A stretch of DNA of 39,386 nt from Chiloscyllium plagiosum (taxonomy: Eukaryota). The stretch spans positions 3,498,750 to 3,538,135 of the forward strand of contig NC_057758.1 in the NCBI RefSeq assembly GCF_004010195.1. The letters are read 5' to 3'. Under the pieces are notes generated by a model, which worked only from the letters and a program-made list of their open reading frames with translations, ran no database searches and was not told the origin of the DNA. The position numbers and the translations under genes are program-made. Below are positions 15,130 to 39,386 of this stretch, one piece after another (the first letter of the stretch is position 1; each line of letters begins with the position of its first letter).

Positions 15130-15720
15130 AAGCACTTAGATCAAAATATCAATATGACATACACATATGCAATATATTGAACAAATATAGATTGCTGTTA
15201 AGTCTTTTGTCTTTTAGAATGGGGCTGCAGGTTCCTATTCCTTAATATGTAAATCCCAGAACTTCTTTCAAGTTGTATTCCCGAGATAATTAAAGGTTGA
15301 ATTTAAAAAGAAGTCACATCTCAGCTCAGACAAAACAATAAAGGAGTGAGTTTAGAGTCTGAATGTATTCTAATATTGAGTCAGGAGTGAGTTTAGAGTC
15401 TGAATGTATTCTAATATTGAGTCAGCCTGATTATATTTTCAAAGTAGGATTGTGTAAAATGATAAAACAATACTGACTGCCGACAGATGGTGTGGTTTTT
15501 GAACAAAATGTAATGGATATGCAAATGTAATTCTGCAAATGGTCATTCACCCAATGGACTTTTGTGTGTTTCTGTGTGCATGTGAGGAAGAGAGGTCGTG
15601 AGAGAGAGAGTGTGTGTGCATGTATGTGTGAGTGCGAGAGTGGGGGAATGTGTGTGTGTGTCTGTGTGTCTGTACCTGTGTGTCTGAAAGAGAGTGTATA
15701 TCTGCAAGAAGGTCTGCGTA
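15130..15720 (+). mobile_element. Interspersed repeat (probably Penelope-type terminal region) truncating the ERV, containing a 41-bp tandem duplication
   Basis: GGAGTGAGTTTAGAGTCTGAATGTATTCTAATATTGAGTCA at 15343 and 15384; family assignment from recall. Confidence 0.5.
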
Positions 15721-22769: not shown

Positions 22770-23030
22770 CCGCCCCGTAATGTTTGATCCGATGGTAATC
22801 AAGAATCTATTTATCTCAGTCTTAAAAGTTCTCAACTACCTGACTTCCAGAACCGTCATTGACAGTGAATTCCATCAATCTCTGGCTGAAGAAATTTCTC
22901 CTTGCTTCGTTTCCTAAAGGGCTTCTCTTTACTCGCAGGCTGCCTTGTCGGGTTTTATTCTCTCGTACTAATGGAAACATCTTTAAAACATGCAGTCTGA
23001 ACTGGCCATTCAATATTCCGCATCTACACT
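22770..23030 (-). mobile_element. CR1 3' fragment
   Basis: MFPLVRENKTR..SLRV...EARRNFFSQR motif. Confidence 0.8.
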
Positions 23031-23034
23031 GTTG

Positions 23035-23504
23035 GTAATCTAAATGCAATTCTTCAAATAGCCATCTCTTTGGCATCCTGTGCGATTGGGGAAAATGATC
23101 AGCAGTTTGACCCAATGAAATAGAAAGTGAAATTTGGACAGTCTCTGAGATGCCAAGGCATTTTGATGGAACAAGCCCCGGAAATATCAGAATGTGAGTA
23201 CGGATGCGAATGATTTAAAACACTCACGGATTTGACCTGTCCCGTTCCATATTCATAGGAACGAGGGCTCTGTCATTCTCTTATTGGTCTGTTCTGTTCA
23301 GAACAACTCAGCTCCAGGGAGTTAGGACGGACCTTGTCTTGAATCGCTTCTTACAAACCTGCGTGTGAGCCAGGAAGATGAGTCATAGGAAAAAAACCGT
23401 CAGAGAAAGTATTGTGTGGAGCAGAATCCGGAAACAAAAAGTTCAAATCGGTGTTCAGAGAGTCGACAATTCAACCAGGCAGCTGTAGTTAGAGAATGAA
23501 AGAC

Positions 23505-23559
<55 letters not shown>

Positions 23560-24575
23560 TTGAGTCACAGATAAAAGAGAGGCAGGGAGAGTGAGAGGCC
23601 AAATGTGAAACGGAGTGAATCAGCTTGGTCCACAACAAGTGAGAGTGAGACGAGAGAGAGTGAGTGAGACAATGTGCGTCACTCTGGCAAGCAACAGTGA
23701 GAGATGAGAGAACGGTGTTTGCATGTATCGAAATAAACATAGAAGCAGTCAGAGTGAGAGTGACAGAAAGAATGACAAAGAGACATAGTGAAAGGCAAAA
23801 AGAGAATGAGATATATGGGTGAGATGCAAAAAAGTGCGAGAAAAATAAGGAAGTGACAGGCAGTGACATAGCAATGGAGGAAGATACAGCAGCATAGATT
23901 CCACGTTTTAAAAGGTCTTCCCTTTACTCTCAGGCTGTGCCGTCGTTTCCTATTCTACCCTGCCAACATCTTCCAAACATCACTTGGACCAGACCATTCA
24001 GTTTCAGCTTATAGACCACCGGGATTCTAAATACAAATCTTGGAATAGCCATCTCTCTGACAGCTGGTGGGATTATGGAAAACGAACAGCAATTTGACCC
24101 AGTGAAGGCGGCAGTGAAACTTGGACAGATTCTCTGAAATGCTGATGCAGTGAGATGGTGCAAGCCTGGGATTTATCAGAAGGCGAGTATGGACTTTAAT
24201 GATTTCACGTGGTCAAGGATTCAGCCTGTCGAGTACCATACAACCAGGAACAAGGGCTCTCTAATCGTATTGTTATGGACCTATTGGGTTCAGAGCAACT
24301 CAGCTCTGGGGGGTTAGGACGGACCTTGTACGGAATTGGTCCTCAAAACATCTCCGGGCTTAACAGCACCATCCAAGACAAACCCTCAAACACAGCCCGT
24401 TCACTTTGGAGTAAAGAAGGGGAAGCAGTGGAATTCACCTGGAGTGTGACAGGAAAGTATTCCACTGTAAAAGAACAGTTGGAGAATATGCAATGGGAGA
24501 AAAATTCCGAATCTAAAGCTGCAAATCGTTGTGAAGAGAATCGACAAAGAAACCAGAAAACTACAGTGAGAGTGT
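23035..24575. repeat. Diverged local tandem duplication: 23035-23490 vs 24025-24575
   Basis: Colinear shared blocks AATAGCCATCTCT, TTTGACCCA.TGAA, TTGGACAG, CAACTCAGCTC, GTTAGGACGGACCTTGT; each copy is followed by a GA-rich tract. Confidence 0.9.
24360..24464 (-). pseudogene. Beta-defensin-like exon 2 (frameshifted)
   Basis: ttcttttacag| GILSC-HTPGEFH-C-FPF-F(TTT)-TPK /shift/ VNGLC-LRVCLGW-CC*. Confidence 0.6.
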
Positions 24576-32084: not shown

Positions 32085-32351
32085 TTATTCCTGTTGTTTA
32101 ATGTTGTAGAAGACAAGATCGTCAGCTGAAGGAGGGTGGTAGGTGCAAACCAGAATGACGATTCCTTTACCAATTCTTCCAATATGACAGGTTTCCCTCA
32201 GAATCGTGACAAATGGTTGTGGCCAAACGATATAACTCTGTGAGGATGGCGCTGTTGGAATAGTTCTGCTTGATTTTACGACCTCCCCCTCGCCCCCATC
32301 AAATGGCGGAGAAACTACAGCATAGACAACAGGCAATGCAACTAATTTTAT
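32085..32351 (-). pseudogene. Beta-defensin-like pseudogene (two exons, 56-bp intron)
   Basis: ATA(for ATG)-KLVALPVVYAVVSPPFDG-G|gcgagg; cacag| phase 1 at 32237: LYRLATTIC-HDSEGN/+1/C-HIGRI-G(GGT)...ADDLV-FY(TTC TAC). Confidence 0.5.
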
Positions 32352-32468
32352 TTATACAAATCAGAAAGCAGTAAGTCAAGTGTCATTTGATCAACACAAT
32401 GGAACGCAGTTGATCAACAGAAATCAGCTGGTCCCTCACACGGTTCTCACATTAGATGTTTTTTTGCT

Positions 32469-32593
32469 TCACATCCGGTTTGACTTGCAGCAGTAGTTCT
32501 CTGCGAGACAAACGTCACTTTGTCGAATTTCATGCGGAAGACAACGGGATTCCCTACAAATTTCATTTTTGAGTTCACAAGGTGGTATGGGGA
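32469..32593 (-). CDS. Beta-defensin mature-peptide exon, intact six-cysteine motif
   Basis: ttcctttttgtcttacag| phase 1: (V)PIPPCELKNEICRESRCLPHEIRQSDVCLAENYCCKSNRM* = C-x6-C-x4-C-x10-C-x5-CC. Confidence 0.85.
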
Positions 32594-32765
32594 CTGTAAG
32601 ACAAAAAGGAACAATTCAATGAGGACCCCACCAGTAGGATTAACCCACCGTCTGTCATTTTGCCAAGTAGTCAGGTCAGCAGAACTGTATCCATTGCTGC
32701 TGGTGTGGTCCAATCGAAGCAGGCCGACACCAAAACTCTGCACAATCTTCCCAGTGTAGACTTAC

Positions 32766-32816
32766 CAAGGGATGTAAAGAGAATAACAGTGCCCAGTGCG
32801 CTCAGTACTGTCTCAT
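32766..32816 (-). pseudogene. Signal-peptide exon for the 32.5-kb defensin, apparently 1 nt short after ATG
   Basis: ATGAG-ACA GTA CTG... = TVLSALGTVILFTSL-G|gtaagt (phase 1, 172-bp intron); the ATG is out of frame by one base. Confidence 0.65.
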
Positions 32817-33596
32817 TAAGGGAGGTAAAGACTAAAAGTGTCGATATACTCCAAGTGTGGTCACAGAGAAAGGTGTGATCTGACCTACAAATGTCATCGA
32901 ACTGAGATATGTGGAGACCACAACTATGTACAGTGTGGTCTTACAAACGGAGTTGAAAATATCTCTATATACAGCGAAAAGGTGAAGCTTAACTAAAGGA
33001 TATGGGGACAAGAAAGTTGTACAGAGCTCCCTGGGGGATTAAGGAAGGTATACAGAGACCAGAAATGTGCACAGTTTTCCTACTGTGACTTAGTCGAGCC
33101 ACATGCAGTCCAGCGCTATGCATAGTTCTCTCAGTGTTGTATAACCGAGGGATAAGGAAAGTAGGACGCTTCACAGATTTCTCATGTCGTCATACCAAAG
33201 AGGATCGAAGCCATCCCTCAGCACAATGTTTCAAGTAGTGTCCTATCGAGAGACATGTGGACCAGAAGTAAGCATAATGCTTCCCGTGTGACTTTATCAA
33301 TGGATATGTATACCAACTCTGTGCACAATGTTTTCTTTCATACAGAAAGTTAAAAAAAAAACAGAAGGATATATGCAAGCAGTTTACCAGACACTTTTGT
33401 ATCGTGCTTCATTTTAAGTACTGTTTTAGAGAAAAAAAACTGTGTTCCTACGGAGTGTATTCCACAGCTCGGGGCTCAGACAGTTGAATACAATCCAAAC
33501 AATGACTGACTGTCTGATCTCTAAATTTATCATAATTAGAATAGTATGGGGATCCTGAATTGTTGTCGCGACTGAAGGATATTGCAGAGATCGGGA

Positions 33597-33958
33597 GTGG
33601 CAGGTCTAAAAGAGATTTGAAAACATGTTGAAACCAGGCTGCTTAGAACAGTTCTTCGTGCATAGTTTTGAGGGTAGATAATTAGCAAATTGAATTGAAC
33701 AGTTCTTCGAAAATTCTCCAAAATGAGATGTTAACTTTTCATTCAGAACTGGCAGGAATGGGATTCTAGCTGCTTGAAAGAAAGCAAAATAAATGTCAAA
33801 ATTCAATTGCAAAACAGCACACGATTGAGGAGCTGATGGTGATGAAATCCGTTTTGAAATAATTGTACTTACAAACAAAAAAAAACTCTAGATTCTCCAT
33901 CCACAGTAATGAGCTCGAAAAACACCAAGACGATGAGCAGGAAAACCAGTGATTTCAT
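33597..33958 (-). pseudogene. Defensin-like gene: intact signal exon plus decayed exon 2
   Basis: 33958: MKSLVFLLIVLVFFELITVDG..|gtaagt at 33872; acceptor at 33772; KNC-SIQFAN-Y(TAT)-LPSKL-C-TKNC...* ACC TGC CAC. Confidence 0.55.
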
Positions 33959-34102
33959 CTTTCCCTGTTGAGTCTGTCCGCTGCACGATGCGATGACCGG
34001 AAGAAGGAGACAATTCATAGCAAATGAGAAACTATTCTGTACTTAATAATCACAGATCAACGTTGAGGATTGGATCCACGTTGTGCTCATTATAATGACA
34101 TT

Positions 34103-38950: not shown

Positions 38951-39386
38951 AGGTAAAAACAATGACTGCAGATGCTGGAAACCAGATTCTGGATCAGTGG
39001 TGCTGGAAGAGCACAGCAATTCAGGCAGCATCCGAGGACAGGCAAAATCGACGTTTCGGGCAAAAGCCCTTCATCAGGAATAAAGGCAGAGAGCCTGAAG
39101 CGTGGAGAGATAAGCTAGAGGAGAGTGGGGGTGGGGAGAGAGTGGCATAGAGTACAATAGGTCAGTGGGGAAGGAGATGAAGGTGATAGGTCAGGGAGGA
39201 GAGGGTGGAGTGGATAGGTGGAAAAGAAGCTGGGCAGGTCGGACAAGTCCGGACAGGTCAGGGGACCGAGTTTCTGGAGGTTAGAAGCTAGGATGAGGTG
39301 GGGGAAGGGGAAATGAGGAAACTGTTAAAATCCACATTGATGCCCTGGGGTTGAAGTGTTCCGAGGCAGAAGATGAGGCGTTCTTC
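38951..39386 (+). mobile_element. Young Penelope-like element end running off the window
   Basis: First about 134 bp identical to 2286-2419; continuation resembles the older copy at 8945-9300. Confidence 0.75.

Follow-up and report, generated by a model that had tools for sequence, protein, structure and literature searches.

Introduction

Passages of two articles (PMC5381368, PMC7203481) describe mammalian beta-defensin genes as having a two-exon layout with a conserved phase-1 intron, and teleost beta-defensin genes, according to passages of PMC11541337 and PMC3978493, have three exons with the cysteines split 4+2. Parts of PMC3978493 also give teleost precursors of 60–77 residues and report low-pI beta-defensin members in olive flounder. 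Clustering, a conserved signal peptide, a divergent mature peptide and frequent loss are described for defensin clusters in sections of PMC5381368. The section on antimicrobial peptides of a 2019 review (PMC6795676) names no shark beta-defensin, and our literature search, with subscription journals and supplements outside its scope, found no title on defensins in sharks or cartilaginous fish; gene lists may include the family.

Here we analysed a locus on the minus strand of a 39,386-nt stretch of DNA (the window, meaning the whole stretch). The best fold matches to its peptide are products of mammalian-type two-exon genes (PF00711, PF13841; hBD-2, 1fd3; hBD-1; mallard AvBD3, 7lzl), with which the locus shares a signal-peptide exon, a phase-1 intron and six cysteines all in exon 2; unlike these genes, it is frameshifted, its peptide has a net charge of 0 and has lost a conserved Gly, and sequence similarity is weak. 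Six cysteines are likewise found in teleost beta-defensins, but in contrast to the three-exon teleost genes, all six lie in one exon here. The surrounding family resembles the birth-and-death clusters of birds, reptiles and mammals in that the paralogues lie in clusters, the signal peptide is conserved and the mature peptide divergent, and loss is frequent; it differs from them in that 12 of 18 complete copies examined are broken and in its host, probably a cartilaginous fish as repeat types suggest. We consider it probable that the window copy is a two-exon beta-defensin-type gene with one extra T in exon 1 (33958–33873), and a recent pseudogene.

Results

Exon 2 and its predicted peptide

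The window copy comprises the following features.

34014–34019, minus strand: decayed TATA box, reading TATGAA and lying 61 nt before the ATG (TATAAA there in intact copies)
33958–33873, minus strand: coding part of the true exon 1, signal-peptide-like MKSLVFLLIVLVFFELITVDG plus a short pro-piece; 86 nt, phase 2
33885–33877, minus strand: T9 run with the frameshift; length differs between samples
33876–33871, minus strand: GTTTGT, a weak candidate donor that precedes the main one by 4 nt and keeps the frame with T9 only
33872–32594, minus strand: intron GTAAGT...TTACAG, 1279 nt (sister introns 1330–2199 nt in the five intact genes measured)
32593–32469, minus strand: coding part of exon 2, a 40-residue six-cysteine beta-defensin-type peptide, net charge 0
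32352–32347, minus strand: candidate polyadenylation signal AATAAA

Re-reading of the minus strand bore out the exon 2 sequence, canonical acceptor and rough charge neutrality given in the preliminary description. The acceptor (CTTACAG/TC) lies at 32594/32593, and the frame runs from 32591 to a TGA at 32471–32469. The peptide carries one His, and its cysteines at residues 5, 12, 17, 28, 34 and 35 follow the beta-defensin spacing C-6-C-4-C-10-C-5-CC; all six are invariant across the 15 six-cysteine family peptides chosen for alignment. The exon had been called perfect, which goes too far: residue 10 is Glu in the window copy and Gly in 13 of the 15 aligned peptides. We take this Gly to matter for the beta-defensin fold.

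Beta-defensin identity was upheld by the cysteine spacing together with the predicted fold, which was beta-defensin-like. Against Pfam PF00711, the window peptide gave an E-value of 0.0039 (17.6 bits, below the cut-off of 21), and 11/15 family peptides matched at E ≤ 0.1 (best 3.1e-5). In an Atlas search, the top three hits were beta-defensin clusters, with scores of 0.76–0.82 that are at lead level. An AlphaFold model built on a 15-row family alignment (pLDDT 78) comprised a short helix and three strands. With this model, the top nine Foldseek rows were beta-defensins, with probability up to 0.98 but E-values of 0.3 or worse, and the top eight VIA rows were also beta-defensins (Z 3.7–4.9; for example 1fd3, rmsd 2.8 over 36); low scores from both programs are expected for only 40 residues. 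From the fold match, the disulfide bonds would be C1-C5, C2-C4 and C3-C6.

Searches of other collections returned little: a sequence search of the PDB gave 0 matches, and neither exon 2 against longer proteins nor the family alignment against proteins of 20–79 residues yielded a candidate. The sole match in a library of 1.84 billion proteins, a 746-residue Ig-like repeat protein, was rejected as a chance match. The family is absent from the protein collections searched and is apparently an undescribed large beta-defensin-type family. Within the 39,386-nt window, no second defensin copy was found.

A leader-like intron repeat unit

32816–32766, minus strand: stretch formerly taken as the leader; one unit of the array below, by unit alignment and a 19-copy comparison
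33360–32730, minus strand: intronic array of roughly 12 degenerate 51-nt units, by self-match by lag

The preliminary description had placed a leader immediately upstream of exon 2. Its observations were borne out on the minus strand: a GTAAGT donor stands at 32765, 172 nt from the exon 2 acceptor, and the ATG at 32816 misses the frame of TVLSALGTVILFTSL by one base, with no in-frame upstream ATG before a stop. The leader-like appearance is real: across both strands of the window, two of 31 G/GTRAG sites follow a stop-free 15-mer with a mean hydropathy of at least 1.2, and the stretch at the 32765 donor has the higher hydropathy of the two.

This stretch was nevertheless found to be an intron repeat unit. 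Over 33360–32620, self-match at a lag of 51 nt was 0.388 (best of 200 shuffles, 0.33), and at lag 102 the array gave 0.34; 33872–33400 showed no 51-nt period, and a narrower test of 32900–32700 alone (0.413 vs 0.44 for the best shuffle) did not rise above the shuffles. The leader unit aligned to the next unit with a score of 38.5, vs at most 28 in 1000 shuffles, and the distance from ATG to donor is exactly one period, with the ATG aligning to a donor-like word in the next unit. In 19 aligned family copies, the stretch measures 51 nt in 15 (including all 10 copies of the window clade), 50 nt in three and 52 nt in one; the ATG is present in eight and in frame in none. The earlier assignment of the leader as exon 1 therefore fails, the true exon 1 lying at 33958–33873, and so does the proposal that a base was lost after its ATG: no insertion was listed at 32810–32816 in any of four DNA runs, and a contig from X1, possibly the assembly's own sample, matches 32694–32880 exactly.

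The array is clearer in the intron of an intact copy, C49:5712215 (L056; 0.42 at lag 51), where two frames are open for 101 and 113 codons. It was found only at family loci or on unexamined small contigs.

Exon 1 and the frameshift

The true exon 1 lies about 1.1–1.3 kb upstream of the supposed leader, and the frame from its ATG at 33958 reaches a peak hydropathy of 3.9, vs 2.27 for the leader. Across the family, 20 of 30 rows (19 distinct exons) have a phase-1 exon 1 of 91 nt, a tally in which four clade rows were caught at the upstream GTTTGT, their main-donor lengths being measured separately. Members of the window clade have an exon 6 nt shorter than this; in C87047 and C98223 it measures 85 nt and stays in phase 1. 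Exon 2 requires phase 1; up to the homologous donor, the window exon measures 86 nt because of one extra T in the T9 run and is thus left in phase 2. The product predicted via the main donor has 34 residues and lacks any defensin domain. Joining exons 1 and 2 gave open precursors of 69–76 residues in all five intact paralogues tried; in six paralogues the signal-peptide exon is in frame through the phase-1 intron and in the window copy it is not, which marks the latter as a probable pseudogene of the beta-defensin family rather than a working member.

The lesion was seen in DNA from four runs, which represent at most four samples from two studies (X3, X6 and X7 come from one study, and X1 is possibly the sample behind the assembly itself). 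Contigs from X1, X6 and X7 each span exon 1 without difference or gap (T9), and in the X3 contig the run is one base longer (T10), likewise out of frame. Since T9 or T10 occurs in all four, the extra T is no assembly error. The preliminary description had offered an assembly error or a recent pseudogene; the first is contradicted by these contigs, and the second stands, with a different lesion. X3, X6 and X7 also contain contigs that lack one base at 33877; the two among the matches listed are paralogues with 6–7 other differences (140 pieces are unlisted). Summed contig depths at 33050–33150 and 33640–33820 reached several hundred, vs 10–24 for copy-unique contigs; depth is no copy number, and these sums hint at a family larger than the assembly shows.

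RNA runs X19 and X20, both from one single-cell sample and read to about 2% and 6%, returned 6 and 0 reads, and X21 returned 0; in this limited sampling, none was ≥95% alike, and there were no spliced joints and no family transcript.

Decay of the paralogue family

A genome search with 32300–34100 gave 60 matches, with copies 67–89% identical through both exons and the intron. The family occupies at least 34 exon-1 places and at least 37 exon-2 places (95 loci), some small contigs among which may be alleles; Pfam PF00711 was unusable for this count, with 0 matches across the genome from 150 of 232 candidates scored. Eighteen copies are complete, their two exons sharing a contig. Of these, six look intact (C95001, C100892, C86353, C96081, C88992 and C49:5712215, five of which were translated), so that the window copy is not a last survivor, which had been one of two options proposed for it, and 12 are broken, counting C87047, which keeps its frame and has lost two cysteines. 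Two further copies that lie on the contig of the window copy likewise have a broken exon 1 beside an exon 2 with six cysteines. On C77720 and C88159 exon 2 is intact, and each contig stops short of exon 1.

Charge was +3 to +8 in the three intact exon-2 peptides measured. Among the 10 exon-2 copies of the window clade, three keep six cysteines, and charge ranges from −1 to +3, which makes neutrality a clade trait.

All six intact copies have TATAAA 60–61 nt before the ATG, vs none of 11 broken complete copies (C74828, whose upstream sequence is missing, was omitted; Fisher p 8e-5, inflated by kinship of the copies). Over all 33 exon-1 rows, TATAAA stands in 16, some of them damaged (C64015, C16895 and two C49 copies for which no exon 2 was found), and is absent from all seven clade copies examined.

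Two further family loci have unusual layouts. L088:2591–2701 (G000:C49:5913102) is a more distantly related exon that follows a good acceptor and encodes a seventh cysteine besides the six, and no exon 1 was recognised within 2.6 kb upstream; at L082 (G000:C101900:52285 and 53542), exon 1 and its flanks are tandemly duplicated before a single broken exon 2. In another species, X11, many relatives match along the whole stretch, and no orthologue was identified among them.

Timing of the break

Compared with C77720, the window exon 2 differs at 5/125 sites and the flanks at 74/561 (p 0.003; two of nine such exon-vs-flank comparisons fell under 0.05). On the window-copy branch, with changes derived from distances between present-day copies, exon 2 took 2–3 differences vs 7.4–8.6 expected (P 0.009–0.062 over six non-independent trios). 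The simplest reading of this slow change in the sequence would be function until recently; continued function could also yield it, and so could gene conversion, to which an excess of exon-2 changes in the C85787 group would point. Between clades, exon 2 is 59–62% identical, vs 77–80% for the 3′ flank.

In trees of the two halves, the window copy branches as sister to all other members of its clade (support 97 and 84), which makes it likely that its extra T arose separately from the longer exons in C85787, C83882 and C4939. The Gly10 to Glu change is private to the window copy. The TATA change is common to all seven clade copies and is hence older than the apparent exon-2 constraint; it may not silence the gene.

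Discussion

Intact copies would encode a precursor made of a signal peptide, a short pro-piece and a disulfide-bonded peptide, the last presumably secreted for host defence. In the window copy, an A-to-T change likely lengthened the T run beside the exon 1 donor, and the lengthened run would then have slipped to T9, and to T10 in one sample. With splicing at the normal donor, exon 2 is predicted to be read in the wrong frame, and its well-preserved look probably reflects a recent break.

A broken allele in the samples seen might coexist with an in-frame T8 or T11 allele elsewhere in the species that makes a working defensin. The difference in run length between samples, the recently constrained look of exon 2 and the presence of some one-base-shorter contigs beyond those listed in full are consistent with such segregation; however, all four contigs clearly belonging to the window copy are out of frame, and both the TATA box and Gly10 are altered in the assembled allele, and we regard this explanation as unlikely. 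Somewhat less likely still is that T9 is rescued by the GTTTGT donor, giving an in-frame 68-residue precursor with run length as an on/off switch. With T9 only, the allele of three of the four samples, this donor yields an 82-nt phase-1 exon, exon 2 is better conserved than the flanks, and passages of PMC2423196 describe four-nucleotide shifts as the preferred type among tandem donors in human and mouse. The same passages find the double-GT pattern at 5% of constitutive exons and G and A enriched in used upstream donors, where GTTTGT has T and T; moreover, it matches the consensus at 4/9 positions vs 6/9 for the main donor, and its presence in in-frame sisters indicates that it was not made for rescue. 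The broader proposal of a T-run switch in a charge-neutral beta-defensin, with segregating lengths of which T9 works via the tandem donor, T8 and T11 via the main donor and T10 is null, is held to be just as doubtful.

Two further explanations concern the 51-nt stretch. The unit ending at the 32765 donor could serve as the middle exon of a gene with three exons and so restore the frame: its GT is kept in 19/19 aligned copies, 15/19 of which have an open, hydrophobic unit. Yet the unit is a repeat unit, it is frameshifted in four of the six intact genes, which keep their frame without it, and GATAAG or AGTAAG stands at the donor in several other copies, making this a very improbable account. 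The least probable is the original model, in which 32816–32766 is exon 1 and one base after the ATG was lost in assembly; although a hydrophobic stretch with a consensus phase-1 donor at its end speaks for it, the exact X1 contig, the four runs without a listed insertion, the ATG of eight copies that is never in frame and the complete family-wide exon 1 with a promoter upstream largely refute it.

As a likely recent pseudogene, the window copy is an ordinary casualty of gene-family turnover (birth-and-death), and its value is as a marker of a large two-exon beta-defensin-type family that is mammal-like, not teleost-like. If the host is a cartilaginous fish, this would suggest that, among jawed vertebrates, the two-exon layout came first. 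The intact paralogues, rather than the window copy, are worth assaying.

Elsewhere in the window, 22940–23380 and 23920–24460 form a diverged segment pair, 74–76% alike in pieces, in which no Pfam family was found. The second segment has at least 33 long genome matches, several on defensin-bearing contigs (C49, C100892, C101847, C97561, C95311), and the pair may represent a decayed gene that was copied along with the defensins. The window also contains a 222-base run of N (2736–2957) and an exact 41-nt tandem duplicate (15342–15425). A 134-nt repeat piece is 100% identical at 2286–2419 and 38951–39084, 36.7 kb apart, which suggests a young mobile element.
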